Made by a program: the position numbers and the translations under genes. This document shows positions 30 through 37,111 of a stretch of 44,422 nt of DNA, piece by piece. Source of the DNA: Kagunavirus 536P11. Below the pieces are notes generated by a model. It saw only the letters and a list, made by a program, of their open reading frames with translations. It was not told the DNA's origin and did not search any database. Numbering within the stretch: the stretch's first letter is position 1; the number at the start of each line of letters is the position of its first letter. The stretch lies in sequence record OZ035764.1. One strand, given 5' to 3'.

Positions 30-1280
30 ATGAGTATTCAGCTATCCGCTCCTCAGGCGCTGTTCCTTAACTGCGATAACAAATACAAGGCCTATGTCGG
101 TGGCTTCGGTAGCGGTAAGACGTTTGTTGGCTGTCTGGACCTGCTTACATTCATGCTTAAGCACCCCGGTACGCGCCTTGGTTACTTCGGCCCGACCTAC
201 CCGGCTATCCGCGACATCTTCTACCCGACATTCGAGGAAGCTGCTAACCTCCTGGGCCTTGATGTGCTGGTTAAATCCGGCGACAAAGAGGTCGTCGTTG
301 CGAGAGGTAAGACAGTAATCGGTACAGTAATCTGCCGTTCGATGGATAACCCAGGCTCTATCGTCGGTTTCAAAATAGCCGCGGCGGTCGTTGATGAACT
401 GGACGTTCTGAGCCGCGAGAAAGCGGAACTGGCGTGGAACAAAATCGTAGCCCGTATGCGTCTGGTTATCCCTGGAGTGGTAAACCACATCTCCGTTACC
501 ACGACACCGGAGGGATTCAAGTTCGTCTATGCCAAGTTCAAAGAGAACCCGACACCTAGCTACTCGATGGTGCAGGCTTCCACACACGAGAATGCGCGGT
601 TCCTCCCGCCGGATTACATTAGCTCGCTGACCGAGACTTACCCCGCGCAGCTGATTAACGCGTATCTTAACGGGGAGTTCGTCAACCTGACATCCGGCAG
701 CGTGTATTACGCCTACGACCGGCGCAAGCACCGCAGCAAAGAGACAATTCAACCTGGTGACACTTTGTACATCGGCCAGGACTTCAACGTTACGAAGAAT
801 GCAAGCGCCGTGTATGTGCAACGTAAAGACGGCTGGCACGCAGTAGCAGAACTGAAAGGTCTGTTCGATACGCCGGATACCGTGCGTGTGATTACTGAGA
901 AGTGGAAGTCGCAAGGCCACCGCATCGTCGTGTATCCGGATGCCAGCGGCAAGAACCGCAAAACCAACTCGGCGTCAATCTCCGATATTGCGTTACTACA
1001 GCAGGCAGGGTTTGATGTTCGCGCTAAATCCGCCAACCCCCCTGTTAAAGACCGTGTTTTAGCGGTGAATACCGCGCTGGAAAAAGGTAAGCTGTGGGTT
1101 AACGACCACTTATGCCCTGAGATAGCGAAGACGCTGGAGCAGCAGGCATACGACGATAACGGGGAGCCCGCTAAAGATGGCATCATTGACCATATGGCGG
1201 ATGCTCTCGGCTATCCTGTAGTTTACGAGATGCCGGTGGTTAAACCAGTAATAAACATCCCGGTGACTTTCGCACTTTAA
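30..1280 (+). CDS. terL: terminase large subunit
   Basis: 416 aa ORF; Walker A-like GGFGSGKT near N-terminus; its ATG overlaps the TGA (31-33) that closes the terS frame running in from the window end; portal follows. Confidence 0.85.
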   Translation: MSIQLSAPQALFLNCDNKYKAYVGGFGSGKTFVGCLDLLTFMLKHPGTRLGYFGPTYPAIRDIFYPTFEEAANLLGLDVLVKSGDKEVVVARGKTVIGTVICRSMDNPGSIVGFKIAAAVVDELDVLSREKAELAWNKIVARMRLVIPGVVNHISVTTTPEGFKFVYAKFKENPTPSYSMVQASTHENARFLPPDYISSLTETYPAQLINAYLNGEFVNLTSGSVYYAYDRRKHRSKETIQPGDTLYIGQDFNVTKNASAVYVQRKDGWHAVAELKGLFDTPDTVRVITEKWKSQGHRIVVYPDASGKNRKTNSASISDIALLQQAGFDVRAKSANPPVKDRVLAVNTALEKGKLWVNDHLCPEIAKTLEQQAYDDNGEPAKDGIIDHMADALGYPVVYEMPVVKPVINIPVTFAL

Positions 1281-1292
1281 GAGGATTATTCA

Positions 1293-2774
1293 ATGTTAAC
1301 TATGAACGGTCAGAATCAGGGTGTTAAGACTAAACACCGGGAATGGCTGCATCACTTCGATAAATGGCAGAAGGTACGTCACGCACTGGAAGGCGACCTT
1401 ATCCGCTATCTTCGCAACGTCGGAAAGAACGAACCAGACCCAACCTACGCGGCCCAGCGCCAGGAAGAATATGAGAACGGTGCTATCTGCTACAACTTCA
1501 CTAAACGTACCCTGGCGGGGATGGTCGGCAGTGTCATGCGCAAAGACCCTGAGCAAATTATTCCGCCTGAACTGGAGTACCTGTTGCGTAACGCTGACGG
1601 TTCAGGCGTCGGGCTGTGGCAGCACGCGCAGGATACGTTAATGGAGATTGACTCGGTGGGTCGGGGCGGGTTGCTGGTTGACGCGCCGGAGACAGCCGCG
1701 GCAACGGCTGCAGAGCAGAACGCAGGGTTATTAAACCCGGTCATCGCATTCTACACCGCAGAGAACATCATCAACTGGCGACTGACCCGCGTCGGTTCTG
1801 TTAACCGTGTGACGATGGTCGTGTTGCGTGAAGTGTGGGAATACTCAGAACCTGGAGCAGAGTTCGAAACTAAGTTCGGTGAACAGTACCGCGTCCTTGA
1901 CCTGATTGATGGTCGCTACCGCCAGCGCATTTACCGTTTCGACGCCGAGGGCGGCGCTCAGGGCGAAGTAATCGAAATCTTCCCGAAACTCGGCGAACAG
2001 TTACGCGGCAAAATCCCGTTCACGTTCATTGGGGCGAGCAACAACGATGCCACCATTGACGATGCACCTTTGCTACCGTTAGCTGAGCTTAATATCGGAC
2101 ATTTCCGCAACAGTGCAGACAATGAGGAATCAAGCTTCGTTGTAGGCCAACCCACTCTGTTCATCGCCCCCGGTGAAAACATGAGCATGGAACAGTGGAA
2201 AGAAGCCAACCCCCACGGTGTGCGCATGGGGTCGCGTTCGGGTCATAACATCGGTTACGGCGGCAATGCGTTTCTGGTTCAGGCGGGAGAGAACAACCTC
2301 GCCAAGCAGAACATGCTGGATAAAGAGAATCAGGCAATCCAGATTGGTGCGCAGCTTATCACCCCGACGCAGCAAATCACCGCTGAATCGGCCCGCCTGC
2401 AACGTGGCGCTGATACATCCGTTATGGCGACAATCGCGTGTAACGTAAGCATGGCGTATACAGATGCGCTGCGCTGGGTAGCTGCGATGCTTGGGCTACG
2501 TGAAGATACAGAGATTGAGTTTAAACTTAACATGGAGTTCTTCCTGCAACCGATGACCGCTCAGGACCGTGCTCAGTGGATGGCCGATATTAACGCGGGC
2601 CTGTTACCGGCTACGGCTTATTACGCAGCATTGCGCAAGGCGGGGGTTACTGACTGGACTGACGAGGAGATTAAGACTGCGATTGAGGACGCGCCCCTAC
2701 CGTTAGGTGCTGTTGCTCAGGTGGCAGGGGAGATTCCGCAGTCGGCACGGCAACAAGACGCCGCTCAGCAATAA
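1293..2774 (+). CDS. portal protein
   Basis: 493 aa ORF directly after terL; size and position typical of portal; RBS-like GAGGA upstream. Confidence 0.7.
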   Translation: MLTMNGQNQGVKTKHREWLHHFDKWQKVRHALEGDLIRYLRNVGKNEPDPTYAAQRQEEYENGAICYNFTKRTLAGMVGSVMRKDPEQIIPPELEYLLRNADGSGVGLWQHAQDTLMEIDSVGRGGLLVDAPETAAATAAEQNAGLLNPVIAFYTAENIINWRLTRVGSVNRVTMVVLREVWEYSEPGAEFETKFGEQYRVLDLIDGRYRQRIYRFDAEGGAQGEVIEIFPKLGEQLRGKIPFTFIGASNNDATIDDAPLLPLAELNIGHFRNSADNEESSFVVGQPTLFIAPGENMSMEQWKEANPHGVRMGSRSGHNIGYGGNAFLVQAGENNLAKQNMLDKENQAIQIGAQLITPTQQITAESARLQRGADTSVMATIACNVSMAYTDALRWVAAMLGLREDTEIEFKLNMEFFLQPMTAQDRAQWMADINAGLLPATAYYAALRKAGVTDWTDEEIKTAIEDAPLPLGAVAQVAGEIPQSARQQDAAQQ

Positions 2775-2784
2775 GTCCGCATAT

Positions 2785-2806
2785 AGCCCCGAAAGGGGCT
2801 TTCTTA
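2785..2806 (+). terminator. intrinsic terminator-like hairpin (AGCCCC-GAAA-GGGGCT then TTCTTA)
   Basis: GC stem with GNRA tetraloop followed by T-rich tract, just after portal stop. Confidence 0.45.
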
Positions 2807-2810
2807 TAGT

Positions 2811-3887
2811 ATGCTATTAACTTTAGCACCACAGGGTTTATCTATGAGCTTACTTACATCCCTAATCAGTCACCAGATATGGCTACAACGCACCGCATCT
2901 GGTGAAGTGAAAGACCTTGCGCCATTTCTTCAGGAAATGCGAGACGAAATCAAACGGCAGGTGCTGTTATTCGGTGACGACGGGCGAAGCACTGCACGAC
3001 TGAATAAATTGTTGCGCGACCTCGAAGAAGCACTGGCGGGGCTTACAGGCGACTGGCAGACAAAGCTGACAGAAGACCTTAAGGAACTGGCGGCGTGCGA
3101 GGCGGAGTGGAACGTAAAGACACTTAACGCCAACGTAAATGCGGAATTTGTTACGCCCACCGCCGAACAGGTGTGGGCTGCTGCTGAGTTTCAACCGCTC
3201 TCATTGAGCGGCAAGCCTGTTGATTTCTCTAAGCTGATGACCGGCTGGGGTGAAACCGAAGTCGCGCGCCTCGTAACCGGCGTTAAGATGGGTTTCGTAC
3301 AAGGTCAGACGACACGGCAGATTGTTAAGAATGTCATAGGCGCTGGCGGACTGGCTGACATCTCTGAACGCAACGCCGCTACGGTGATACGCACCGCGTT
3401 GTCGCACGTGTCCAACGAAGCCCGCAACGAGACATACCGACAGAATGACGACATCATCGAGAAATACGAATGGGTGTCAACGCTGGACAGCCGTACCAGT
3501 ACGATTTGCAGAGCCAGAGACGGAATGACGTGGGAAATCGGTAAAGGACCGATGCCCCCGGCCCATTTTGGGTGCAGAAGTACCACGGCCCCTGTAATAA
3601 GTTCAGAGTTCGACTTCCTGGATAAAGGTGCAAAACGGGCGGCTAAAGGCGCAGATGGTGGTACTCAGGTAAGCGCAGACACCACTTATTACGACTTTCT
3701 GAAACAGCAACCGGCATGGTTCGTGGATGAAGCACTCGGACCTACCCGCGGTGCTATATTCAGGAATAGTGGGATATCCCCAGAGGAATTCCGGGTAATA
3801 TCCGTCGACGCTTTTGGTAGACCTTTAACCTTGAAGGAGATGGCGGCGTTAGATAACAGGGTTGCTGAATATCTTAGGTCGGTATAA
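2811..3887 (+). CDS. head morphogenesis / minor capsid protein
   Basis: 358 aa ORF between portal and scaffold-capsid genes; assignment by position only. Confidence 0.45.
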   Translation: MLLTLAPQGLSMSLLTSLISHQIWLQRTASGEVKDLAPFLQEMRDEIKRQVLLFGDDGRSTARLNKLLRDLEEALAGLTGDWQTKLTEDLKELAACEAEWNVKTLNANVNAEFVTPTAEQVWAAAEFQPLSLSGKPVDFSKLMTGWGETEVARLVTGVKMGFVQGQTTRQIVKNVIGAGGLADISERNAATVIRTALSHVSNEARNETYRQNDDIIEKYEWVSTLDSRTSTICRARDGMTWEIGKGPMPPAHFGCRSTTAPVISSEFDFLDKGAKRAAKGADGGTQVSADTTYYDFLKQQPAWFVDEALGPTRGAIFRNSGISPEEFRVISVDAFGRPLTLKEMAALDNRVAEYLRSV

Positions 3888-3945
3888 AGTATATCTAGTA
3901 GCTAGCTTTGGTCGGTGAACTACTAAAAATAGAGAAAGAATATAA

Positions 3946-3996
3946 CCCCATGAAGGTATGCCTATCTCTGGCATCGACCAATCTTCATGGGGTTTT
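3946..3996 (+). terminator. nested stem-loop plus T-tract (terminator-like)
   Basis: 10-bp inverted repeat CCCCATGAAG / CTTCATGGGG (3946-3955 / 3983-3992) enclosing inner stem ATGCC / GGCAT, followed by TTTT. Confidence 0.45.
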
Positions 3997-4011
3997 CTTA
4001 TAGGGTTTAAT

Positions 4012-4581
4012 ATGGGAATTGTTTTTGGTGTGGGTATTAACGATGTTTCACCAATAAGTTGCGGAGGGGTGCATATAGCGTCCTACGCCGTATGGAAGAA
4101 CATGTTAAAGAGGTGCTACGACAAGAAATGGCAGCAAAGAAACAGAACTTATATAGGTTGCCGCGTGTCGGACGATTGGTTGGTGTTCAGTAATTTCAAG
4201 GTCTGGTTTGATGATTTTTATGTACCTGGGTGGCAGATAGATAAGGATTTACTTAACCCGGGAAATAAGGTTTACGATGCTTCTAACTGTGTTTTCATCC
4301 CTAAATCCCTCAATACTTTCCTAACAGCCCACGACGCTCTTCGAGGCGAACACCCACTCGGCGTACATTTCCATAAACAAAAGAAAAGATTCATCGCTCA
4401 AGTATCCGTGGATGGCGTATCTGAACAAATAGGCGCTTACGAAACCGCTCAAGAGGCACACGTAGCATGGTTTCATAGAAAAATTGAATTAGCATATGAA
4501 TACAAAGGTCTTTGCGATAGCATAGACCCACGCCTTTTCGAAGGCGTCTTACGTAAGATTAACTCAATGAAAGAGGTTTAG
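4012..4581 (+). CDS. HNH-AP2 type homing endonuclease-like protein
   Basis: C-terminal AP2-like DNA-binding segment (GVHFHKQKKRFIAQVSV...AHVAWFHRK); ORF-track start 3958 lies inside the upstream hairpin, so ATG 4012 preferred. Confidence 0.5.
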   Translation: MGIVFGVGINDVSPISCGGVHIASYAVWKNMLKRCYDKKWQQRNRTYIGCRVSDDWLVFSNFKVWFDDFYVPGWQIDKDLLNPGNKVYDASNCVFIPKSLNTFLTAHDALRGEHPLGVHFHKQKKRFIAQVSVDGVSEQIGAYETAQEAHVAWFHRKIELAYEYKGLCDSIDPRLFEGVLRKINSMKEV

Positions 4582-4584
4582 TTT

Positions 4585-5043
4585 ATGGGCTTTTTCAAAG
4601 TAACTGATGTGCTGTCACGTCGTGTAGTCCAGTACGCCCGCGTGTCTGGCTCTGGCGAGAACGTGGTATTTATCGAAGATGAAAGTGTACTGGGTACACC
4701 AGTAGACGATATGCCGTTTGCGGATAAAACCGGTATTGCGTTGCCAGCCGCGGGTATGCTTTATGAAATTCCGTATCTGGCTGACGCAGGCGACGTGTAC
4801 TTCTCGGCGCAACCGCAGGACGCTGAACTGGCGGACGGCAGCGCAACTATCACTGTCGAAGTTAAGGCGGGCAAAGCGCCGTATGCTCTTACCTGGTACA
4901 AAGACGGTAAGGAAGTTGTAAACGCACCTGAAGAGGCCTTGTCTCTGACGGTTAACGCAGCAGGTGAATACTTCGTTAAAGTCACCGATGCCGGTGGCGT
5001 AGAGGCCGTCAGTAAAGCGGCGAAGGTAACTAAGCCAGAATGA
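4585..5043 (+). CDS. Ig-like domain protein (possible capsid/virion decoration)
   Basis: 152 aa; C-terminal segment with PYALTWYKDGK Ig-like signature shared with ORF 8161-8511. Confidence 0.45.
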   Translation: MGFFKVTDVLSRRVVQYARVSGSGENVVFIEDESVLGTPVDDMPFADKTGIALPAAGMLYEIPYLADAGDVYFSAQPQDAELADGSATITVEVKAGKAPYALTWYKDGKEVVNAPEEALSLTVNAAGEYFVKVTDAGGVEAVSKAAKVTKPE

Positions 5044-5044: not shown

Positions 5045-5069
5045 AAAAAGCCCCGTTAAGGGGCTTTTT
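5045..5069. terminator. intrinsic terminator (AAAAAGCCCC-GTTAA-GGGGCTTTTT)
   Basis: perfect GC stem flanked by A-run and T-run immediately after stop at 5043. Confidence 0.7.
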
Positions 5070-5133
5070 AGTGCCTGTGATTATTCCAGTTATTCCACTA
5101 AATTGTAAATGTTGGAATAAACTATTCGAATAG

Positions 5134-5162
5134 TTGACTTTTCACTGAAAATATGATAAGCT
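5134..5162 (+). promoter_or_regulatory. sigma70-like promoter TTGACT-17-TGaTAAGCT (extended -10)
   Basis: TTGACT 5134-5139, TG 5154-5155, TAAGCT 5157-5162; same architecture at 37080-37108; palindrome AACTATTCGAATAGTT (5120-5135) overlaps the -35. Confidence 0.5.
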
Positions 5163-5166
5163 CCAC

Positions 5167-5370
5167 CTGAGCTTGTGAAGTATGAACAAGCGACCGCGGC
5201 GCGGGCAGGTAACGGAGCGGGACGTAAGTCCTGAGTGTAGTTACGCTGACGCGTTCGGAAGGGCCATACTCTATTGCTTGTGTAAAAAGTAACTGGTTTA
5301 CTGAGATTACGCCGTTTCTATGTTTAAATGATAAGGACTAGCGCCCCGCTTTATGGCGGGGCTTTACTTA
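5167..5370 (+). ncRNA. candidate structured small RNA, copy A (boundaries approximate)
   Basis: no conserved ORF; blocks CTGAGCTTGTGA, CAAGCGACCGCGG and GAGTGTAGTTaCGCTGaCGCgTTCGGAAGGGCCA shared with 37112-37349; hairpins GCTTGT/ACAAGC and GGGAC-GUAA-GUCCU; ends in GCCCCGC/GCGGGGC hairpin plus T-tract. Confidence 0.4.
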
Positions 5371-5386
5371 TCGAGAAAGGAGAAAC

Positions 5387-5773
5387 ATGAATCTTAAAGC
5401 AACTGTCGTAGCGGGAGCATGTTTCATCATCCTGGCTTACGCACACGGCATCTACCAGTATCGCAGCGGCTGGAACGAAGGCCGGGCGAATCTCGTTTCG
5501 CAGCAACAGCAGAAAGCACAGGCTGAGTTAGCGAAGAAAACACAACGGCAGCAGCAGGACGAATCAAAGGCCGCAGCCGCTGACAACGAAGGCAAGACGA
5601 AATCAGAGGTGATTACCCGTGAAGTCGTTAAGTACATTAAAACGCCTGGTCGCAGCGTGTGCACTTTTGACACTGAGCGCGTGCAACTCAAGTCCCGCGC
5701 CGTCACCAACGCCAATTCCATCCCCGGATACGACAATGATGCAGCCGCCGTGCAAACTGGCCGCGCCAAGTAG
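5387..5773 (+). CDS. Rz: i-spanin (Rz-like)
   Basis: N-terminal TM helix then charged Q/A/K-rich periplasmic region; encloses start of an overlapping +1-frame lipoprotein ORF. Confidence 0.6.
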   Translation: MNLKATVVAGACFIILAYAHGIYQYRSGWNEGRANLVSQQQQKAQAELAKKTQRQQQDESKAAAADNEGKTKSEVITREVVKYIKTPGRSVCTFDTERVQLKSRAVTNANSIPGYDNDAAAVQTGRAK

Positions 5774-5882
5774 CGATGCCGACGAGGATTTGGCTATCGA
5801 CGTCCAGAACGCCGAATGTGTACGGCAACTGAGGCTGAAAGTGTTCATGTTGCAGGATTACGTGAGGAATATTCTGGAATAG
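5619..5882 (+). CDS. Rz1: o-spanin (Rz1-like lipoprotein)
   Basis: starts inside Rz in another frame; signal peptide with lipobox LSAC; Pro-rich mature region including MQPP. Confidence 0.55.
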   Translation: MKSLSTLKRLVAACALLTLSACNSSPAPSPTPIPSPDTTMMQPPCKLAAPSSDADEDLAIDVQNAECVRQLRLKVFMLQDYVRNILE

Positions 5883-5964
5883 TTGCCTTGCATGTTGGAA
5901 TAATTTATTCTTGACATGTAAATCCGGGCGGCCCGGGTTCCAACGTCCAGGGGACATACTGACT

Positions 5965-6666
5965 ATGAATCGTTTTTTACGTTATCCGTTCCAGGAAGAA
6001 GCTGGAGCAGAAGATAAAGCTGGTGGCGGTGACGCACCAAAAATGTTCACCGCTGAAGAAGTTCAGGCGCTGATTGAGAAAGAAGTTGCCGGGCTTAAGG
6101 CAAATCAGGAAGCGTTGCTGGCGGAGAAGAAAGAAGCCGCTCGCAAAGCAAAAGAGGCCGAAGAACAACGGCAGCGCGCGCACCAGGAGGCGTTAAAGGC
6201 TGCTGGTAAGATGGACGAGTTCGAAAAAACGATTCGTAGCCAGTATGACCCGGTGTTAGCCGAGAAAGATGGTCGCATCTCCAAAATGGCGGAGCGCATC
6301 CTCGGCAGCGAACGTAAAGCGGTGTTAGGCTCTTTTGCGGGTGACTTTATTACCCCGGAAGCAGCGGACATTCTTGCACCGTTCGTCAAGACTGAGTTCG
6401 AAGGTGATGATGTGGTTACTAAGTTTGTCGGCCCAGACGGCAACGTAATCACGACTGACCCGGAACAGTTCCGCAAATACCTGCGCGAACACAAAGCGTT
6501 TTCGCATTTGATTAAAGCAAATGCAGCTTCCGGCGGCGGGGCTTCCGGTAGCAAAGGCGGCGGGGCCGCACCAGCGTTTAAAGACATGAGTGAAGCAGAG
6601 CGTTTAGCCCTGTATAAATCGAACCCTGCCGAATTTGAACGGCAACTTAAAGCCCTGAGGAAATAA
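5965..6666 (+). CDS. scaffolding protein
   Basis: A/E/K-rich coiled-coil-like protein directly upstream of major capsid gene; ATG 5965 preferred over track start 5911. Confidence 0.6.
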   Translation: MNRFLRYPFQEEAGAEDKAGGGDAPKMFTAEEVQALIEKEVAGLKANQEALLAEKKEAARKAKEAEEQRQRAHQEALKAAGKMDEFEKTIRSQYDPVLAEKDGRISKMAERILGSERKAVLGSFAGDFITPEAADILAPFVKTEFEGDDVVTKFVGPDGNVITTDPEQFRKYLREHKAFSHLIKANAASGGGASGSKGGGAAPAFKDMSEAERLALYKSNPAEFERQLKALRK

Positions 6667-6668
6667 TA

Positions 6669-7718
6669 ATGGCAATTACCACTATCGGCGATATCGTAAC
6701 TGGCAACATCCCGGTCCTGGCGTCTTACATGACCGAGGACCCGGTAGAAAAAACTGCGTTCTTCCAGTCCGGTATTCTGACCCCGACTCCGTACGCTGCC
6801 GAGATTGCCCGCGGCCCGTCCAACGTCGCTAATATTCCGTTCTGGAAAGCGATTGACACTTCCATCGAGCCTAACTACTCGAACGACGTATACCAGGACA
6901 TCGCTACCCCGCGTAACGTGCAGACCGGCGAGATGATGGCGCGCGTTGCATACCTGAACGAAGGCTTTGGCCAGGCGGACCTGACCGTTGAACTGACCAG
7001 CCAGAACCCGCTGCAATCTGTGGCTTCTCGCCTGGATAACTTCTGGCAGCGTCAGGCACAACGCCGTCTGATTGCTACCGCGCTCGGTCTGTACAATGAC
7101 AACGTAGCTGCTACCGACGCATACCATGAGCAGAACGACATGGTAATCGACGTGTCCTCTACTCTGGGCTTCGACGCTGGCGCGTTCATCGACGCTACCC
7201 AGACTATGGGTGATGCACTGATGGGTAACGGTGGTGAAGTGCTGGGCGCTATCGCTATGCACAGCTTCGTATACGCGCAGGCGCGTAAGCAGCAGCTCAT
7301 TGACTTCACCAGAGACGCCGACAACGACACCCTGTTTGCCACCTACCAGGGCTACCGTGTGATTGTTGACGACAGCATGACTGTAGTCGGTACCGGCAGC
7401 AGCCGTAAGTTCATCTCCATCATCTTCGGCAACGGCGCTATCGGTTACGGAGAAGGTAACCCGACCAATCCGCTGGCATATGAGCGCGAAGAGTCCCGCG
7501 GCAACGGCGGTGGCGTCGAAACCCTGTGGACACGTAAGACTTGGTTGCTGCACCCACTGGGCTACCGCTTCACCAGCGCGGTGATCACCGGCAACGGCAC
7601 CGAGACCGTCGCACGCTCCGCTTCCTGGCAGGACCTGGCGAACGCCTCCAACTGGAACCGTGTTGTTGGCCGTAAGCACGTACCGATTGCCTTCCTGGTA
7701 ACTGGTGTAGGGGCTTAA
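6669..7718 (+). CDS. major capsid protein
   Basis: 349 aa ORF after scaffold, followed by strong terminator; position and size typical. Confidence 0.75.
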   Translation: MAITTIGDIVTGNIPVLASYMTEDPVEKTAFFQSGILTPTPYAAEIARGPSNVANIPFWKAIDTSIEPNYSNDVYQDIATPRNVQTGEMMARVAYLNEGFGQADLTVELTSQNPLQSVASRLDNFWQRQAQRRLIATALGLYNDNVAATDAYHEQNDMVIDVSSTLGFDAGAFIDATQTMGDALMGNGGEVLGAIAMHSFVYAQARKQQLIDFTRDADNDTLFATYQGYRVIVDDSMTVVGTGSSRKFISIIFGNGAIGYGEGNPTNPLAYEREESRGNGGGVETLWTRKTWLLHPLGYRFTSAVITGNGTETVARSASWQDLANASNWNRVVGRKHVPIAFLVTGVGA

Positions 7719-7733
7719 GGTTAAGCTATAATC

Positions 7734-7758
7734 GAGAGGGACTTCGGTCCCTCTTTTC
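7734..7758 (+). terminator. intrinsic terminator (AGAGGGA-CTTCGG-TCCCTCT-TTTT)
   Basis: GC stem-loop plus T-run right after capsid stop. Confidence 0.7.
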
Positions 7759-7777
7759 ATTTACTAAGAGGTGAATT

Positions 7778-8149
7778 ATGGCTAAGACCGGAAAAGGCTT
7801 GCCGCGCAGCCTTCAGAATGTCGACTTCGGCGACCTGGACATCAGCGTAGGCTGAGGAGAAGTAACAGGTAAACCGGCGGTAATCGCGGCGGGGGCGACC
7901 CAATATGCGGCACGTACCGCTATTGGTGCAGGTACGTCAAGCCTTGCGATCGGAACAACTTCGACTACCGCGATGGCGGGAAATAAGTTCGTTCAGGGTG
8001 CTGCGGTTACAGACGTCGGCACGCAGACCGTTACGGGTGAAGAGGCTGCCGCGGTTGCTACGTCCGCACAGACTGCGGTTAACGCGGTAGGCACTCAACT
8101 TAACGCCTTACTGGCACAACTTCGTGCCGCTAAAATCATCGCATCCTGA
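7778..8149 (+). CDS. small structural protein ORF interrupted by in-frame TGA at 7853-7855
   Basis: strong RBS AAGAGGTG before ATG 7778; frame stays open in same phase after the TGA to 8149; no start codon in frame between 7856 and 7972. Confidence 0.35.
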
Positions 8150-8160
8150 GGAGCTTAAAA

Positions 8161-8511
8161 ATGGTTGATGTAATTAAACGTCGTATTACTGGTGTGTCCG
8201 CCGATACCGTGGGTGCTAAAATCGATATGGCAAATATCTCGCCAGCGTCTTTCTCTTCCGCGCTGGCGGCTACTACCTCCGTTACCGCAGGTGAAACCAT
8301 GACACTGACCGTAACCGTAACGGGCGGTCTGGAGCCGTATTCCTACCAGTGGTACAAGAACAACAACGCTATCGCCGGGGCGAACGCTGCTTCCTATGTG
8401 AAGGCGTCCACTACTACCGCAGATTCCGGTACGTATAAAGTGGTTGTTCGCGATGTGTATGGTAATATTATCTCCAGCAGCACTGTAGCAACTGTAGCAA
8501 CTGTGTCTTAA
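8161..8511 (+). CDS. Ig-like domain protein (possible head decoration)
   Basis: 116 aa with EPYSYQWYKNN...GTYKVVVRD Ig-like signature. Confidence 0.5.
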   Translation: MVDVIKRRITGVSADTVGAKIDMANISPASFSSALAATTSVTAGETMTLTVTVTGGLEPYSYQWYKNNNAIAGANAASYVKASTTTADSGTYKVVVRDVYGNIISSSTVATVATVS

Positions 8512-8547
8512 TGCGACGGCCCTTCGGGGCCGTAATAAGGAAAGGTC

Positions 8548-8727
8548 ATGGCAGATAATTATGTAATCCGCGAAAAATACACCCACGTTGATGTTGTTGA
8601 CGGTCAGGTGATACCAGTTCGCGGTGTTGTAGAAGCGGACGAGCTGGTTGCAACCCAACCGGACAGCGAAGAAGCGCACAACAACGGCGGCGGTACTAAG
8701 CGTCGTCGCCGTAAGTCAGAGGAATAA
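8548..8727 (+). CDS. hypothetical small protein (59 aa, not in ORF track)
   Basis: ATG 8548 with AAGGAAAGG RBS; ends in basic tail KRRRRKSEE; fills gap between annotated ORFs. Confidence 0.45.
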   Translation: MADNYVIREKYTHVDVVDGQVIPVRGVVEADELVATQPDSEEAHNNGGGTKRRRRKSEE

Positions 8728-8730
8728 TTT

Positions 8731-9243
8731 ATGCCGCTAATCGTGGAAACGGGAGAAATCGTACCTGGCGCTGACAGTTACATTAGCCTGGCTGACGCCC
8801 GCGCGTTAGCGGCTAATTATGGCCTTGAGCTACCGGAAGACGATACCGCAGCAGAGGTGGCCTTGCGCAACGGCGCTACTTATGTCGGGCTTGCAGAACC
8901 GCAGATGTGCGGTAGACGCGTGTCGGCAGAACAGTCTCTTGCGTATCCTCGCACCGGCGTAACGTTAAATGGCTTCCCTGTAGCGAACAGTGTTATCCCG
9001 AAACAGATAATTCTTGCGCAGGTAATCGCCGCAGTTACGTATGGCGCAGGCACCGAAGTGCGGGCTAACTCAGACGGCCGTTCCGTGCAGACTGAGCGTG
9101 TCGAGGGTGCAGTGACAGTGACCTACTTCAACAACGGCAACAGTGGCGCTACGACCGCGATTACGGCTGCGGACGACGCCTTACGCCCGTTACTGTGCGG
9201 CGGTCTTAACAATGGCTTCTCGTTTAACGTGTACCGGGGTTAA
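8731..9243 (+). CDS. head-tail connector/adaptor-like protein
   Basis: 170 aa, first gene after head genes; assignment by position. Confidence 0.4.
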   Translation: MPLIVETGEIVPGADSYISLADARALAANYGLELPEDDTAAEVALRNGATYVGLAEPQMCGRRVSAEQSLAYPRTGVTLNGFPVANSVIPKQIILAQVIAAVTYGAGTEVRANSDGRSVQTERVEGAVTVTYFNNGNSGATTAITAADDALRPLLCGGLNNGFSFNVYRG

Positions 9244-9245
9244 AA

Positions 9246-9860
9246 ATGGCGAATACTAAAACAGAGATATTCACGCTAATCGGATCCGAGCTACCGGACA
9301 ACACGACCGGACTTATCACGCCAGCGAAGCTGCGCGGGGTATTAACCCAGATGGCGGACTCACCTATTTACGCCACTCCCGGTGTTAAAGAGGTTGAAGT
9401 TCTCCGCGCAGCGTCAACAGTAGCGCAAGCGCCCGCCGCAGTAGATACAGCATTGCAGTTAACTTTCGGCTCTGCTCAGGGTAGCGCATCTGACCCGGTA
9501 ATGCTTAATGCTGCGGGGCTGGTTACGTTCAACACCGCGGGTAATTATGCCGTCCGCATCAAGTTACAGGCGGGGCGCACTGGAGCGAGCGGTACATCTA
9601 TCCTGTTATCGCGCATCCTCATCAACGGTGCTCAGTACGGCTCTCCCGCTGCCACAAAAATAGTCAGCGCCGACATAACAATTCCTATTGAGTCCCGCGT
9701 CGTTATTAACCCAACCGCAGGCCAGACGTTTGCCGTTCAGATTATGCGGGATAGCGCCGGGGCCAACTTCGGCGGTGTATACCCACAAGCGGCTACAGTA
9801 ACCTCATGGGGCACGGCACCGTCGGCGCTACTGGTTATCTCGAGACTGGAGGCCGCTTGA
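9246..9860 (+). CDS. virion structural protein
   Basis: 204 aa ORF in head-tail junction region. Confidence 0.4.
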   Translation: MANTKTEIFTLIGSELPDNTTGLITPAKLRGVLTQMADSPIYATPGVKEVEVLRAASTVAQAPAAVDTALQLTFGSAQGSASDPVMLNAAGLVTFNTAGNYAVRIKLQAGRTGASGTSILLSRILINGAQYGSPAATKIVSADITIPIESRVVINPTAGQTFAVQIMRDSAGANFGGVYPQAATVTSWGTAPSALLVISRLEAA

Positions 9861-9954
9861 TGAATAAGTTCGCATGTGGTTTAGTTTTTGGTTTTCTTAC
9901 CGCGGTAGTCTTGCACAGTTACGGTGTTCTTTTGACGCTGCAAGAGGTGTTAAA

Positions 9955-10314
9955 ATGAGCACCGCTTTCAGTAAACGTATGCAAGGCGTGGGTACACGTC
10001 TGCTAACCAAATTCGGTAGCACGGTATCTTTGGTTCGTGCTGGCTCGAAAGTGTGGGATGAAGTTCTCGGTGAGTACGTCTGGTCTGCGGATGAAGTGTT
10101 GCCGTTGAAGGCGGTTCCGGTTCCGGTAAACGCGGGACTGGTAAACGGTACGACGATTCAGGCTGGCGACATGATTGTTAAAGCGGATTGCAGTGTTGTA
10201 CCGAAGATGGAAGACAAGGTGCAATTCGGCGGCGAGCAATGGTCTGTCGTAGCCATTGAGAAGAAGATGGTTAACGATGATGTCGTGGCATACTTTATCC
10301 AGGTGAGAAAATGA
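9955..10314 (+). CDS. head-tail joining protein (putative)
   Basis: ATG 9955 with AAGAGGTG RBS preferred over track start 9874; stop overlaps next gene start. Confidence 0.4.
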   Translation: MSTAFSKRMQGVGTRLLTKFGSTVSLVRAGSKVWDEVLGEYVWSADEVLPLKAVPVPVNAGLVNGTTIQAGDMIVKADCSVVPKMEDKVQFGGEQWSVVAIEKKMVNDDVVAYFIQVRK

Positions 10315-10706
10315 GTTTCGCGCTTGATGTCTCTAAGTTCGTGGAAAAGGCGAAGAAGAACCCAGAGAAGGTGATGCGTCAGGTGTCTATCAAGCTGTTT
10401 TCCGCTATTATAAAGGCGAGTCCGGTAGATACAGGCCGATTTCGTATGAACTGGATGGCATCTGGCGGTACTCCTGCTTCCGGGATTACGGACGCTACAG
10501 ATAAATCAGGAAACATAGCAATCGGAAACGCTACAGGTTTCGTACTGAAAGCCACCGACTGGCGCGAGTTCACGCTGACAAATAATCTGCCGTATGCACA
10601 ACGACTGGAGTATGGTTGGTCGCAGCAAGCGCCCGCCGGGATGGTCAGGACTAACGTGTCTCGCTTCCAGCAACTCATTAATGAAGAAGCCAACAAGGTG
10701 AAATAA
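10311..10706 (+). CDS. tail component, HK97 gp10-like
   Basis: 131 aa; PVDTGRFRMNW motif resembles HK97 gp10 family signature; overlapping start/stop with neighbours. Confidence 0.45.
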   Translation: MSFALDVSKFVEKAKKNPEKVMRQVSIKLFSAIIKASPVDTGRFRMNWMASGGTPASGITDATDKSGNIAIGNATGFVLKATDWREFTLTNNLPYAQRLEYGWSQQAPAGMVRTNVSRFQQLINEEANKVK

Positions 10707-11119
10707 TGGGCTACTTTGAGGACTTAACCAAAGCGTTTGATGTGCCGTTGGTAGCCTTCGGGAACGCAAACGGCATCAAGGTTGCGCTTGAAAACATCGA
10801 CGCGCCGACGTCAACCGATACGCCGTATCTGGCGAGTTACATGTTGCTGGCAGATACGGAACAGGCGGATTTGTTCTTCACCGAGCAACGCTCTGGTATC
10901 TATCAGGTCGACATTAACTACGCATCGGCGCAAGGTAGCGCGCCAATCAATAAAATGGCAGACTTACTTAACACGGCGTTTAAAGCAGGCAAGTCATTTT
11001 CACGTAACGACATCTGCGCCGAGGTTCAATCGGTTAGCCTGGGGCCGCTGATTGTAGAAAACGGATGGGCCAAAAGACCATTGTCAATTAACTTTATTGC
11101 ATTCACCAAGAGGCTGTGA
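10706..11119 (+). CDS. tail completion/terminator-like protein
   Basis: 137 aa ORF immediately upstream of major tail gene. Confidence 0.35.
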   Translation: MGYFEDLTKAFDVPLVAFGNANGIKVALENIDAPTSTDTPYLASYMLLADTEQADLFFTEQRSGIYQVDINYASAQGSAPINKMADLLNTAFKAGKSFSRNDICAEVQSVSLGPLIVENGWAKRPLSINFIAFTKRL

Positions 11120-12288
11120 ATATGACTACAACTCCTTTTAAGGGCGCGAATACCGCGCAATTCTATGTGGCGGAAGTTACCCCGGGCGTAACACCGGCTA
11201 ACCCTGTCTGGTCGCCGTTGCGTAACACTGGCGGTGTTCCTGCTATCACCCGCGACACGCTGACCTCCAACGAGCTGGACGGCAGCCGTGAAACTACATC
11301 CATCCGCACCGGTAACAAACAGGTTAGCGGTGAATACGCGATCGAGCTTAGCTCGAAAAGCCAGGACGACTGGCTGGCGGGTGCTTTAGGCGCTACGTGG
11401 CAATCAGGTGTTTCTCTGTCTGGGCTGTCGATTACCGTCGCACCAGCGGGTAAGACGTTCACACGCTCCACCGGCAGCTTTATTACCGACGGCGTTGAAG
11501 TGGGCGACCTGATTGCGTTTACCGACTTAACGGGGGATAACGCCAAACCGTTTATCGTAACCGCAGTAAATGCACTGGTAGTAACCGGGGCGGGTATCCA
11601 ACACACCCTGACCACCGAGAAAAAAACTAGTAAGGCTAAAACCGGCGACACGCTGGAAACCGGTAACACGTGTAAGACGTTCTCTATCCTTACCTGGTAC
11701 AAAGGCCAGTGCGGCGGTACTGACGCGTACACGTTAACCAAAGGCGTGGAAGTTTCTGGTTTTACCATCGAACAGGCTGTTAACGCGATGGTAACTGGCA
11801 GCTTCCCATTCATCGGTCGCAGTCAGGAGATTCTCACTACGCCGCCGACCGGTTCCAACTTCTCATCTGTTACTTTTGGTGATGAGCCGTTCTCTTCGGT
11901 TGACGTTTCCGTGTTCGATGGCTCTACGCCGTTGCGTTGTGATAGCCTTACCATCACCAACGACAACAGCGCGTCCGCGCAGTTCGAACTCGGCAATACT
12001 AATGTGGCGTTTGTGGAGCGTAGCCGCGCGGCTAACACCTTCTCCATCTCCGGCAAGCTGTACGACATGGCTATGATTCAGAAGTTTATCAACGAACAAC
12101 AGGTAGAGATTAACTCTATTCTGGCGGGGGTAAACGGGGCTATGTCTTTCAGTCTGAAACGTGCAGAACTCACGGCGGTTACGCCAGAGATTGGCGGGCC
12201 TGAGTCAATCACTCAGAGCATAGAAGGACAGTCCACAGGCAATCAATACCAATCTTCTATTGTAATACAGCGTATTAGCTACGCGTAA
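11116..12288 (+). CDS. major tail (tube) protein
   Basis: 390 aa ORF upstream of chaperone and tape measure; followed by terminator. Confidence 0.55.
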   Translation: MNMTTTPFKGANTAQFYVAEVTPGVTPANPVWSPLRNTGGVPAITRDTLTSNELDGSRETTSIRTGNKQVSGEYAIELSSKSQDDWLAGALGATWQSGVSLSGLSITVAPAGKTFTRSTGSFITDGVEVGDLIAFTDLTGDNAKPFIVTAVNALVVTGAGIQHTLTTEKKTSKAKTGDTLETGNTCKTFSILTWYKGQCGGTDAYTLTKGVEVSGFTIEQAVNAMVTGSFPFIGRSQEILTTPPTGSNFSSVTFGDEPFSSVDVSVFDGSTPLRCDSLTITNDNSASAQFELGNTNVAFVERSRAANTFSISGKLYDMAMIQKFINEQQVEINSILAGVNGAMSFSLKRAELTAVTPEIGGPESITQSIEGQSTGNQYQSSIVIQRISYA

Positions 12289-12313: not shown

Positions 12314-12808
12314 CTATTTACCGTGGTTCTCGTGGAACCCTAAATCTCTTTCAGCAACTCTCCTCGCAGCAACTGCATCTAGTAGCGTTTTAAAGCATCC
12401 GATGTGTGTTTTTACGTTATTGTTGAATATCTGTGCGTACCACAACCTTTCTTTCGCGTTCCAGTAAACCCCGGTTACTCCTGATTTATTATTACGCTGT
12501 TTTGACATATTTTTATGGTTTTCCGCATTGGACTTTTTAGCTAAGTTAAGCGGTCTATTGTTTATTCGGTTATGGTCTAGATGGTCTATTTGATCTGACG
12601 AGGTTAGCTTATCGTTAGGATTGTTTAAGTCCCAAGCTATACGGTGCGCCGCGTGCCATTTACCTCTGAAAAATATCCTTCTATATCCGTCTCGCTGTAC
12701 AGTACCTGCCTCCTCTCCAGCCTTAGCCCTCCCAGAACGTGTTACTCTGTTAAATATCCTTCCTGAAATTAAGTCGTATATGAAAAATTCATTCCAGTCC
12801 ATAATCAT
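12314..12808 (-). CDS. HNH-AP2 homing endonuclease-like protein
   Basis: HNH-like segment IDHLDHNRINNRPLNL and AP2-like segment GVTGVYWNAKERLWYAQI; start at MIMDW (RBS AGGAGA) preferred over track start 12940. Confidence 0.55.
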   Translation of the reverse strand: MIMDWNEFFIYDLISGRIFNRVTRSGRAKAGEEAGTVQRDGYRRIFFRGKWHAAHRIAWDLNNPNDKLTSSDQIDHLDHNRINNRPLNLAKKSNAENHKNMSKQRNNKSGVTGVYWNAKERLWYAQIFNNNVKTHIGCFKTLLDAVAARRVAERDLGFHENHGK

Positions 12809-12845
12809 CTCCTGTTGCGATAAGGCCCCTTTCGGGGCCTTTTTC

Positions 12846-13076
12846 TCACCCATCAATGTTACTTCGATACTCCCGTAACTTCTCCAGACTTTCAATTGCT
12901 TCGTTAAGGTCTGTATCAGCGTCCTTATGCCCTCTACCACCCATACATAACAGTTTCTTTAATGCGTGCTGTAGCGCGGGGTCGTTAATAACGAAGGCCC
13001 TTAGTACATCATAAACATCACATGTAATGGAATCGCCTGCGGTGTTGGTAAGTGTATGGTCGTATTTATTTGTCAC
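12846..13076 (-). CDS. hypothetical protein
   Basis: 76 aa ORF in minus-strand cassette. Confidence 0.4.
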   Translation of the reverse strand: MTNKYDHTLTNTAGDSITCDVYDVLRAFVINDPALQHALKKLLCMGGRGHKDADTDLNEAIESLEKLREYRSNIDG

Positions 13077-13266
13077 TGTTAACCCTCTTAAATCGGGCTA
13101 TGCCTGACTCGTTAATGTTGCCTATTTCAAAGAAGCTGCGATATTTAGGAGAATACATTCTTACGTCGCCATTCTCTAGGGTGATCCCTTCATATACAGC
13201 ACCTACTTCGAACCCATTTTTCTCCGCGTACGGACTCACATCGGTGCATTCATACATGTCTTTCAT
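13066..13266 (-). CDS. hypothetical protein
   Basis: 66 aa ORF in minus-strand cassette; ends overlap neighbours. Confidence 0.4.
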   Translation of the reverse strand: MKDMYECTDVSPYAEKNGFEVGAVYEGITLENGDVRMYSPKYRSFFEIGNINESGIARFKRVNSDK

Positions 13267-14393
13267 CTCAGCATCTCCGGTGAAATAGTTAAACGTGCGA
13301 CCTCGCCATATTCGGCACTATAAGTAATTACATTTGCACTACGGCCTGACATCCATCCGCCGCGGGAGGCGTAGGCGTCTTTAGCCGCTAAGGTGCGGTG
13401 TTGCTCAACAATCATGTTACGGCTTTCTACAATCTTCTGGTGGTGCAGGTGGCCTACGTGGGCGTAGCTGTAGACGCTCTCGCCGAAAGCCTTACGGAAT
13501 TTAGAAATCATTACTGACTCTATGGTATCAAATCTCGCACGGTGCCCATGGTGCATGAATAGTGTAGTTTTTCCATGCTGAACCATCTTGTATACGTCGG
13601 GGGAGGTGTCAACAAATACGCGAGGTTCGTTGTCATACAATGTGCAGAACATTTCGGCAAGCCATACGGAGCCGACAGGGTCGTGGTTACCTTGAACGAT
13701 TAAAAGTTTGACTGTGTGATGTTTAACAAGCGCCATATCAACAACACGGCGCACCATACGAATCATGTAGCGCACAAGTTTCTGATAACGCGTATCTGCG
13801 TCCAACACATGGCGTGACTCAGGGGTAACTGCATCCAGACTATCGAAGTGCGCGAAGTCCCCAAGCAGGTTAATAACCCCAGTTCCCGCGTCCGGTGCTT
13901 TCTGAAATGCAGCATCGAACCAGCGAGAAAACAGGTCTTCCGCAATCTTCATATCCCAGTCGTCTCCGCTCTCGTCTGCCCATGCCAGCATACCGAGATG
14001 AAAATCAGATACCGTGTAAAGATTGAGTAGTTTATCGTCACGTTTGGCCCGAGTCGCTTTAACAGGCGCTACCGGGGTAATCTCCGACTTCATACCCTCG
14101 ATTACGGCGTTCATCAACTCGACCTGACGTTCGGCATCTGTGTCGGTCTTAACCCATTGCAGTTTAGTGTTGCCGAACTCGTCCACAAGTGACGACGTTC
14201 CTTTAATCTTGTAGCCATCTGGTACAAGGTGGCTAACGTCGCGCCCGTGGCCTACGCCTTTCTTTGCCAGCTTCGCTTTACGGATACGAATTACACGGTC
14301 TGAGATGCCATATTTACGGGCTATATCGATAGTTTTAACTCCGGCGTTCAATTCTTCCTGTAACTGTTCGTCGGTTATTTTCTTCCGGGCCAT
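13263..14393 (-). CDS. HTH domain + calcineurin-like metallophosphoesterase
   Basis: N-terminal HTH-like segment (IDIARKYGISDRVIR); phosphoesterase motifs DFH, GDFAHFD, GNHD, HHGH, GHLHH; RBS GAGGAAG. Confidence 0.6.
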   Translation of the reverse strand: MARKKITDEQLQEELNAGVKTIDIARKYGISDRVIRIRKAKLAKKGVGHGRDVSHLVPDGYKIKGTSSLVDEFGNTKLQWVKTDTDAERQVELMNAVIEGMKSEITPVAPVKATRAKRDDKLLNLYTVSDFHLGMLAWADESGDDWDMKIAEDLFSRWFDAAFQKAPDAGTGVINLLGDFAHFDSLDAVTPESRHVLDADTRYQKLVRYMIRMVRRVVDMALVKHHTVKLLIVQGNHDPVGSVWLAEMFCTLYDNEPRVFVDTSPDVYKMVQHGKTTLFMHHGHRARFDTIESVMISKFRKAFGESVYSYAHVGHLHHQKIVESRNMIVEQHRTLAAKDAYASRGGWMSGRSANVITYSAEYGEVARLTISPEMLR

Positions 14394-14623: not shown

Positions 14624-14653
14624 TTTAAAACCCTCTATTGTTGGTGTAAGTGA

Positions 14654-14682
14654 ATAGTACGCTATTATATTGGGGTGCGCAA
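14654..14682 (-). promoter_or_regulatory. early promoter with operator (TTGCGC-17-TACTAT, core AATAG-N4-CTATT)
   Basis: minus strand reads CACCCCAATATAATAGCGTACTATTCACTTA, near-identical to 37391-37423. Confidence 0.55.
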
Positions 14683-14789
14683 GTAGTGTGTTAGAATAAT
14701 TTTGCGCCTAGTGTCGCACACGAAAAGCGGGTGGTTCCCGTCTGGCGCATTTCCTTTAACCAGTAACCTCTTAACCAAAGGATTAAAGA

Positions 14790-15206
14790 ATGAAACTTTC
14801 TGATTTTTATTTCGAAGACAAAGCGCTGGTAGGCAAGAAGATGCCGATTCTGCTGCCGAATGGCGAAGACTCCGGTGAGTGGCTTAACGTTGTAAATCCG
14901 GATGCGGACGCCGCCGTTAAAGCCGGGCGTGCTTTCATTATCGCGTACCGCCGCGGTCTGGCGCGTTTTGAAGAACTGGAAAAAGCTGCCAAAGAATCCG
15001 GCGACTATACTGAATATAACCTGGCGGTTAACGAACTGGCGGAAGACCTAAACCGGCAACTCGCGGCAGAAGTCGTAAACGGCTGGAGCTTTGACGAGCC
15101 ATTCTCTAAGGAAGCGTTTAACAAATTGCTCGATCAGTTCAAAGCATTAGGCACACAGGTAGCGGCGTTCCATAACGCTGAGCGCAAAGCATTACAGGAA
15201 AAGTAG
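14790..15206 (+). CDS. tail assembly chaperone (G-like)
   Basis: 138 aa ORF directly upstream of tape measure; -1 frame is open from 15182 through 15571. Confidence 0.6.
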   Translation: MKLSDFYFEDKALVGKKMPILLPNGEDSGEWLNVVNPDADAAVKAGRAFIIAYRRGLARFEELEKAAKESGDYTEYNLAVNELAEDLNRQLAAEVVNGWSFDEPFSKEAFNKLLDQFKALGTQVAAFHNAERKALQEK

Positions 15207-19234: not shown

Positions 19235-19237
19235 TGT

Positions 19238-22652: not shown

Positions 22653-22664
22653 AGAGGACTCTAT

Positions 22665-27805: not shown

Positions 27806-27835
27806 TTCTCAATTCCTTATATTGTTGGTGTAGGA

Positions 27836-30847: not shown

Positions 30848-30861
30848 TATTTTGACCCTTA

Positions 30862-30886: not shown

Positions 30887-30905
30887 AATTAAACAGATTC
30901 AGATA

Positions 30906-31617: not shown

Positions 31618-31621
31618 CACT

Positions 31622-37108: not shown

Positions 37109-37111
37109 TCA

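Follow-up and report, generated by a model that had tools for sequence, protein, structure and literature searches.

The 44,422 nucleotides (nt) of sequence record OZ035764.1, here called the window (the whole stretch of DNA analysed), belong to Kagunavirus (Guernseyvirinae) and carry two copies of one unit, copy A at 5134-5276 and copy B at 37080-37223, each composed of a common sigma-70-type promoter and about 105 nt of RNA. We are confident that this unit specifies a conserved, non-coding, structured 5' leader RNA which travels with its own promoter. Neither Rfam nor the searchable literature yielded a description of it; the element is a new RNA family. More tentatively, and by analogy with the put RNAs of phage HK022, we favour the possibility that the leader is a cis-acting, put-like anti-termination RNA, which may help the host RNA polymerase through downstream hairpins and terminators.

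An earlier reading of this DNA without database searches (the sequence-only reading) had proposed a structured RNA with a paralog at a second site, the two sharing three blocks of sequence, and all three blocks are present where it had placed them. Identity between the copies is 79% over 147 nt, from the -35 box through CTATTG (BLAST). Within the window the 34-nt block and the promoter pattern TTGACT-17-TGnTAAGCT each occur exactly twice, against 0.00 occurrences expected from shuffles. A covariance model run with filters off scores the copies at 135.7 and 110.9 bits, the latter being copy B, and the next match at 7.8 bits; neither the pattern, nor BLAST, nor the covariance model with filters off detected a third copy in the window. 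The spacing of the blocks had been said to differ by 3 nt and in this way to break any shared reading frame. The spacing of blocks 2 and 3 is 32 nt in one copy and 35 nt in the other, a true difference of 3 nt but one that keeps the frame, and it is a 1-nt difference between blocks 1 and 2 that breaks it.

The promoter was found at both sites as proposed. P_A (5134-5162, plus strand) is composed of a -35 box TTGACT (5134-5139), a 17-nt spacer and an extended -10 box TGaTAAGCT (5154-5162), and P_B (37080-37108, plus strand) has the form TTGACT-17-TGcTAAGCT. Nine aligned copies of the A and B types agree without exception in the -35, the TG, the -10 and the spacing. P_A escapes a scan for consensus promoters, TAAGCT having three of six matching positions. 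Transcription from P_A is predicted from the promoter sequence to start at G5169 or A5170, and we infer a start at 5169. An inverted repeat AAGCTC-CACCT-GAGCTT (5158-5174) runs from the -10 region into the beginning of the RNA.

Single-sequence folds of the two copies gave the same architecture. P1 (5171-5191), the hairpin at the 5' end of the RNA, begins 1-2 nt past the predicted +1 and pairs GCUUGU (5171-5176) with ACAAGC (5186-5191) around a variable 9-nt loop. It is followed by a long irregular hairpin, the P2-P3 domain (5194-5258), in which P2a (CCG/CGG, 5194-5196 with 5256-5258), P2b (GGCGCG/CGCGUU, 5198-5203 with 5250-5255), P2c (CAG/CUG, 5206-5208 with 5246-5248) and P2d (GUAAC/GUUAC, 5209-5213 with 5240-5244) are capped by P3 (GGGAC-GUAA-GUCCU, 5219-5232), and whose conserved internal loop is formed by GGAG(C) and, opposite to it, (G)AGUGUA. 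Then comes a conserved single-stranded tail AAGGGCCAUACUCUAUUG (AAGGGCC..UCUAUUG, 5259-5276); the homology of A and B stops at its CUAUUG. The RNA of copy B (37116-37223), on the plus strand like all of the above, has P1 at 37116-37121 with 37130-37135, P2-P3 at 37138-37205 with its P3 (GUGCC-AUUA-GGCAC) at 37164-37177, and the tail at 37206-37223. The sequence-only reading had correctly picked out the two small hairpins, GCUUGU/ACAAGC and the P3 stems that differ between A and B, but had overlooked the enclosing P2 (5194-5258). Fold energies are below those of shuffled sequences (z -2.1 to -3.8), the minimum free energy of copy B being -49.3 kcal/mol (z = -3.76).

It is the internal loops (GGAGC, GAGUGUA) and the tail (AAGGGCC..UCUAUUG) that hold the conserved nucleotides, and the hairpin loops vary freely; the P3 loop is GUAA, AUUA, GUCA, GUUAA, UGUAG, CUCG, CUCA or CACA among the variants. 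No credible pseudoknot was found, the all-against-all search for co-varying columns being swamped by the split between Kagunavirus and Jerseyvirus. Of the resemblances to K-turn, loop-E, CsrA (GGA) and boxA motifs, judged from sequence alone, none is kept in all variants.

Support for the fold comes from 40 distinct sequences, collected from IMG/VR (by pattern), from GenBank phages with divergent B copies and from the Jersey group, and arranged in a hand-made structural alignment (28 rows) and a model-made alignment (29 rows). Both are fitted to the structure, and part of the covariation signal comes from the Kagunavirus/Jerseyvirus split. Standard pairs fill 95.5% of the cells in the hand-made alignment (80.4% when shuffled) and 94.9% in the model-made one (79.9% when shuffled), with changes on both sides in 10 of 23 and 13 of 28 pairs, respectively. 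The covariation score is 0.397 against 0.115 in shuffles for the former and 0.401 against 0.124 for the latter, values reached by none of 500 shuffles in either case; with the 3' partners slid by 1-3 columns pairing is 23-44% and the score at most 0.085. RNAalifold finds P1, P2a, P2c, P2d and P3 unaided on the model-made alignment, 12 of 21 pairs being compensatory. Kagunavirus by itself offers examples: a pair in P2b occurs as C-G, U-A or A-U, a pair in P2d as U-A, G-C or A-U, and P3 takes the forms GGGAC/GUCCU, CGGAC/GUCCG, GUGCC/GGCAC, GGUGC/GCACU, GGGGC/GCCCU and CACG(U)/(A)CGUG. The structured non-coding RNA with a compensatory change that had been read from two copies is thus borne out, at about 95% pairing against about 80% in shuffles and 10 to 13 pairs changed on both sides, and the homologs aligned (28-29 distinct variants) have the covariation rather than lacking it. 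Two G-U pairs in P2b are near-invariant (24 of 28 rows) and would be C-A mismatches on the opposite strand, so the fold belongs to the plus-strand transcript and the complementary strand is ruled out.

The absence of a conserved open reading frame (ORF), also part of the sequence-only reading, was confirmed by frameshifts and lost start codons in the homologs, and the shared blocks are not conserved coding sequence. An ORF of 36 amino acids (aa) at 5182-5292 is shortened by natural 1-nt indels to 9, 17, 19 or 22 aa (9 aa in the K1ind1-type variants), and its start codon is missing in copy B, in the variant L037 (ATG to GTG) and in every Jersey-type version. Substitutions in the element preserve base pairs, not codons. 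A small protein gene with a functional product from this ORF is thereby refuted, and we assign it a negligible probability, although the leader RNA is annotated as a coding sequence (CDS) for a 'hypothetical protein' in Shashou, fKuEco01, ORH_001 and other records; in Snoke a CDS is placed on the strand opposite copy B. The CDS calls over the leader RNA are probably annotation artefacts.

A BLAST search of GenBank phages with the copy A region found 180 records at 90% identity or more, with Escherichia phage K1ind3 at the top (100%). These Kagunavirus-type records are all Guernseyvirinae, mainly Kagunavirus, plus 65 Salmonella phages. Out of the 495 phage records with the neighbouring scaffold protein, 180 carry the Kagunavirus-type element and 269 the Jerseyvirus version, the latter once per record. 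At the A site the element always lies between the terminator of the Ig-like gene and Rz, and the leader is the best conserved part of the neighbourhood, with 98-100% identity against 80-96% for the flanking genes; over the whole of 5167-5386 (RNA and spacer) identity in A-type relatives is 94.5-100%. A second copy, at the B site, is present in only 42 of the 180 records. The term 'paralog' therefore holds for the two copies seen here, but it is the A site that is universal in the subfamily, the B-site copy being found in a minority of genomes. GenBank record OR594183.1 (phage vB_EcoM_SHAK7858) has a taxonomy line reading Autographiviridae; Kayfunavirus, yet its sequence and gene order here are Kagunavirus-like.

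The Salmonella phage Jersey carries a diverged version at exactly the same A site (41.3 bits with the R1 model, E about 1e-9). Its promoter is TTGACT or TAGACT, a 17-nt spacer and TGnTACGCT; its P1, UACGCU-UUC-AGCGUA, differs from GCUUGU/ACAAGC in all six pairs with the hairpin retained; the P2 frame CCG-C-GGUGCG...CGCAUU-CGG is kept, with a P3 GGGCGU/ACGCCC. Behind the tail, AAGGGYCGAGYUAUAUUG (AAGGGYCG..UAUAUUG), come a hairpin, a ribosome-binding site and Rz. At the B site Jersey and K1G lack the element and have other promoters and leaders instead. The K1G leader at this site (L331, 3180-3500) has the consensus promoter TTGACA-17-TAAAAT without the RNA module; it contains the A-site hairpin in an inverted copy (AAAGCCCCGCCATAAAGCGGGGCGCT), a GUCUAUU similar to the tail, and then, in common with the window, an ACTGA-N9-GTTTCTAT motif and the hairpin GGGGTGGGC.

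The unit appears to move between sites. In IMG/VR contig 3300045988_039442 (L048, L003) the A site holds a B2-type core in A-type flanks and the B site a B1-type core; the B2-type core is otherwise found only at B sites, which indicates exchange between the A and B sites. Among more remote relatives, the R2 model gave 9 bits for TS6 (E = 1.1, non-significant) and no match at the leaders of Serratia phage Otaku and Hafnia phage TS33. All three phages have structured A-site leaders, with a 5' hairpin and a CUAUU-like tail in Otaku and TS33, homology not being established. No blastn match was found in 5,426 complete E. coli genomes. The pattern CAAGCGACCG-N5-9-GGCAGG gave 240 matches in metagenome and genome contigs, nearly all of them chance matches in GC-rich genomes; only L158 and L168, both A-type, are genuine. 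The viral contigs L307, L317, L318, L321, L322, L327 and L328 matched CCGCGGNGCG-N35-65-TTCGGAAGGG by chance and were discarded as unrelated. The sequence-only reading could not match the element to an RNA family, and the Rfam 15 scan agrees: neither copy type has a match at gathering thresholds, and permissive scans gave only matches of at most 18 bits.

The unit shared by A and B runs from the -35 box to CUAUUG and excludes the 3' hairpin. Beyond CUAUUG similarity is weak, the exception being the plus-strand motif ACTGA-N9-GTTTCTAT, found at 5300-5321 (3' of copy A) and at 37249-37270 (26 nt 3' of the copy B tail), with two matches in the window against 0.06 expected. The tail (GUCUAUUG) contains its core UCUAU as well, a sequence similar to the operator half-site CTATT. 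Every version has a GC hairpin 56-84 nt past the tail, followed by a U-tract which is interrupted (A), poor (Jersey) or absent (B). The A hairpin, GCCCCGC-UUUAU-GGCGGGGC (5343-5362, plus strand), followed by UUUACUU up to 5369, ends 17 nt before the Rz start codon; by its sequence it looks like a weak intrinsic terminator, and its stem co-varies in relatives (GCCCAGC/GCTGGGC, GCCCGGC/GCCGGGC, GCCCGAC/GTCGGGC). Copy A had been described as ending in a GC hairpin with a T-tract; the hairpin is indeed located before Rz, but its U-tract is interrupted. The B hairpin, CGCUGGGGUGGGC-UAAC-GCCCACCCACUGCG (37309-37329 within the segment 37305-37335, plus strand), lacks a U-tract, leaves about 118 nt of leader before the ATG at 37453, and is also found in K1G, which has no RNA module at the B site.

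Apart from a ribosome-binding site, nothing separates the A hairpin (5343-5369) from the Rz start (5387), so the Rz, scaffold and capsid genes must be transcribed through the leader. Promoter scan and reading of the sequence found no sigma-70-like promoter between the downstream hairpin and Rz, nor before the scaffold or capsid genes, and the element is consequently the 5' leader of the Rz-scaffold-capsid operon. The earlier description of a promoter-driven RNA holds as regards the conserved promoter and has to be widened, since the RNA is the 5' leader of an operon and not necessarily free-standing. Terminator-like sites with good stems are found further along the plus strand at 7734-7755 (after the capsid gene) and at 15342.

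Our tentative proposal for the function of this portable cassette of promoter and leader RNA is the following. Host sigma-70 RNA polymerase would initiate at TTGACT-17-TGnTAAGCT, and the first ~105 nt would fold during emergence into P1, the long interrupted P2a-d/P3 hairpin and the single-stranded tail. The folded RNA would act in cis, in the fashion of HK022 put, on the elongation complex that made it, and this complex would resist the GC hairpin or weak terminator 56-84 nt downstream, Rho on the 220-340 nt of untranslated leader, and later terminators such as 7734-7755 after the capsid gene. The Rz-scaffold-capsid-head/tail genes could in this way be expressed from one promoter. Such a scheme presumes termination at the hairpin downstream of the leader and its suppression by the RNA, either alone or together with a protein. 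The put-type reading is based on the position at the start site, the two-hairpin form with conserved loops, the hairpin and terminators downstream, the cassette behaviour and the lack of any protein recognisable as an antiterminator; scans of seven small proteins turned up no domain of the Q, N or AlpA type. Terminator, promoter, RNA, hairpin and gene follow one another in a conserved order, and a shared unit without the 3' hairpin, together with the swapping of cores between sites, fits a module conferring a property on whatever follows.

Several observations weigh against this proposal. The downstream hairpins have weak or no U-tracts and are perhaps not terminators, and the annotators of Shashou did not call the A hairpin as one. 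There is no similarity to HK022 putL or putR in sequence or by model. K1G and Jersey have the same kind of B-site leader with a hairpin and without the RNA, which means that read-through there is independent of it. The A-site spacer and hairpin are as conserved as the RNA itself, which is compatible with a discrete RNA of about 195 nt. Furthermore, the late genes are split by a minus-strand block (12314-14393) and a second promoter region near 14640, and the sole Kagunavirus transcriptome is resolved at gene level (PMC12645636).

Other functions can be considered for the same RNA. It may be a 5' stabiliser or processing element, in which P1 shields the late mRNA from RNase E acting in a 5'-end-dependent manner, the ~23-bp P2-P3 is an RNase III site or a protective structure, and the downstream hairpin serves processing or stability. 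Stabilising 5' elements such as the ompA leader are characterised by a hairpin at the very 5' end whose sequence is free as long as it pairs, and P1 lies 1-2 nt from the predicted 5' end and changes its sequence while keeping its pairs; moreover the operon encodes the most abundant virion proteins, and good U-tracts are missing from the hairpins. A simple stabiliser or RNase III site would, however, not need near-invariant loops and an invariant tail across two genera, and the constant association of promoter and RNA is left unexplained; we regard this function as unlikely, but worth serious consideration. A little less probable in our opinion is a loading site of the nut type, whose loops and tail would bind a phage protein or host factors (an N-like peptide, a NusB/E-type complex or other) that ride the polymerase and suppress termination. 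This would have the same architecture as the put-like leader, and conservation in internal loops and tail with variable hairpin loops is typical of a protein-recognition surface. Against it, direct reading found no boxA, the nearest sequence ACUCUAUUG fitting CUCUUUAA at five of eight positions, there is no boxB-like hairpin with a conserved loop, the P3 loops being variable, and the seven small proteins contain no antiterminator domain, although N-like peptides are invisible to profiles.

If P_A transcripts mostly stopped at 5343-5369, the product would be a discrete trans-acting small RNA of about 195 nt, similar to lambda's short pR'-tR' transcript and directed at host or phage targets, a host protein or a defence system, with the downstream genes expressed by leakage. 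Its own promoter and hairpin, the high conservation of 5167-5386 among A-type relatives and the low fold energies would suit such an RNA. It is made doubtful, slightly more so than the loading site, by the fact that past CUAUUG A and B have no strong similarity beyond one short motif and differ in their 3' hairpins, that the copy B hairpin lacks a U-tract, that Rz, scaffold and capsid lack promoters of their own, and that blastn against the 5,426 E. coli genomes gave no host complementarity. The succession of promoter, structured domain, hairpin and gene is also that of a transcriptional riboswitch, where P2-P3 would be an aptamer for a metabolite or ion governing the downstream hairpin. This is very improbable, given that there is no Rfam match, that the hairpin is 56-84 nt distant, that by direct reading the tail pairs with neither arm of it in A, B or Jersey, and that K1G has the same hairpin without the domain.

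The put RNAs of HK022, on which the favoured anti-termination function is modelled, bring about protein-independent antitermination and antipausing via the zinc-binding domain of the beta' subunit. Like them, the leader RNA is phage-borne, lies directly 3' of a sigma-70 promoter with its start as near to +1 as that of putL, forms two stem-loops with conserved bulges or internal loops, and is present up to twice per genome before long terminator-containing operons, with no dedicated protein recognised (PMC9378689). It differs in its length (about 105 nt against about 70) and its additional conserved single-stranded tail, in its occurrence in virulent Guernseyvirinae rather than lambdoid phages, and in that its universal copy stands before a late operon of structural and lysis genes, whereas put heads the early PL and PR operons. 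At the level of general form, then, the element is a two-stem-loop RNA just 3' of a sigma-70 promoter, with a predicted start site, heading an operon with terminators. It is not a member of the put family: the R1 and R2 models, applied without filters to the HK022 immunity region (L063), gave nothing at putL (4240-4312, minus strand) or putR (5460-5530), and direct reading found no blocks shared with either.

Resemblance to other anti-termination systems is more limited. The lambda pR'-qut-tR' ('6S') region and the Q/AlpA systems also have a late promoter, a hairpin or terminator within ~200 nt and lysis and head genes (PMC9371919), and a regulator-binding site at the promoter, to which the putative palindrome site described below would correspond. 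Those systems depend on a DNA element and a -10-like pause element and on no conserved RNA structure; in the element described here, conservation and covariation concern the structure of the RNA. The TGAGCT downstream is without the A that is essential at position 2, and a -10-like repeat is convincing only in Jerseyvirus (TACGCT-ACC-TACGCT), where the -10 hexamer of Jersey (L304, 1772-1795) is repeated exactly 3 nt downstream and forms the 5' arm of P1; a sigma-dependent pause could be caused by this repeat. The seven small proteins scanned, a subset of the phage ORFs, included no recognisable Q-like protein. Lambda nut and the boxB-boxA-boxC of rrn operons resemble the element in combining a hairpin with a conserved linear sequence in a leader close to the promoter, and in being present twice per phage genome, but the element has no boxA or boxB consensus, its hairpin loops are variable and its structured domain is much larger. 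Neither a CGCUCUUUA-like boxA nor a 15-nt boxB hairpin with a conserved GNRA-like loop was found, the nearest linear element being A/GC/UUCUAUUG. The int-alpA RNA motif (RF02996; 14701-14765, plus strand), which is the sole Rfam match of the window (36.6 bits against a gathering score of 35.8), is likewise a structured leader of the same genome heading a late-gene block, although in sequence and fold it is unrelated to the leader RNA, which has no Rfam match. It precedes the plus-strand gene at 14790, the first of the tail block, so that the second late-gene block too starts with a structured RNA.

Upstream of P_A lies the perfect palindrome AACTATTCGAATAGTT (5120-5135), whose centre is at -41.5 relative to the predicted start 5169, the classic position of class II activators. 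The palindrome had been reported as overlapping the -35 box; the overlap exists, but comprises just 2 nt of the hexamer. A second inverted repeat, GAATAaacTATTC (5114-5127), overlaps it, and the two (5114-5135) are composed of GAATA/TATTC half-sites. From its sequence, the palindrome AACTATTCGAATAGTT is a probable binding site of a dimeric regulator of P_A. A candidate for the factor binding the GAATA/TATTC sites is the 56-aa HTH_17 protein, excisionase/MerR-like, encoded divergently from P_B (36804-36974, minus strand). In the transcriptome of Kagunavirus K1B4 a helix-turn-helix gene is among only four 'early' genes (PMC12645636). The HTH_17 protein was also considered as an antiterminator like AlpA of Pseudomonas and rejected, being far smaller than the eight-helix AlpA and having no significant PDB match.

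Sigma-70-like promoters are rare on the plus strand, and several near-consensus promoters are present in the replication block on the minus strand. The sequence AACTATTC occurs seven times in the window against 1.3 expected, including the minus-strand promoters 31589-31617 and 33865-33893, and this class of motif has been described as a repeated 'phage promoter' motif (PMC9825357). A further repeated motif of ~35 nt, TTGCRCACCCCAATATAATAGNRTACTATTCAC, is found at 37388-37425 (plus strand), 14647-14683 (minus strand), 38753-38843 (plus strand) and 33865-33950. It contains a consensus TATAAT and an ACTATTC box, and the two copies read, 37388-37425 and 14647-14683, each precede a start codon by ~30 nt and are oriented like the gene. 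The counterpart of this motif in fBC-Eco01 is the reported 'phage promoter' motif tgAATAGTa-ccTATTat-T (PMC9825357), and its copy at the B site of the window is a putative second promoter between the RNA leader and the first gene.

The layout of the window was obtained from its ORF map and the annotation of the relatives Shashou and Jersey. On the plus strand, genes for terminase, portal, head morphogenesis and the Ig-like protein (30-5043) are followed by the terminator of the Ig-like gene (5050-5075), 5' of P_A, and then by the Rz/Rz1, scaffold, capsid and head-tail genes (5387-12288). The first gene behind the leader is the Rz-like spanin gene (5387-5773, plus strand, as annotated in phage Shashou); 3' of Rz/Rz1 comes the scaffold gene (5911-6666, plus strand), and 3' of this the major capsid gene (6669-7718, plus strand). 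After a short minus-strand block (12314-14393) come the tail genes (14790-24902, plus strand), the replication genes (25247-36974, minus strand) and, from 37453, a run of small plus-strand genes. This last block, 3' of P_B, includes two DUF551 paralogs (38086-38298 and 38449-38640, plus strand).

To our knowledge the put RNA of HK022 and its close lambdoid relatives is the only RNA so far known to reprogram bacterial RNA polymerase alone. It is possible, though we put it forward with considerable reserve, that the leader described here represents a second, evolutionarily independent family of protein-free RNAs which bind their own RNA polymerase, present in virulent siphoviruses of E. coli and Salmonella in about 450 sequenced genomes as a movable promoter-plus-RNA cassette of ~145 bp. 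If this were true, a second and unrelated put-like family would mean that the solution has evolved more than once, and the unit would provide, for E. coli and Salmonella, a small portable part of promoter plus leader with which genes could be expressed regardless of terminators. Whatever the mechanism, many GenBank records wrongly label the RNA as a 'hypothetical protein', and an undescribed RNA family with strong covariation is present in a phage group widely used in therapy and biocontrol.

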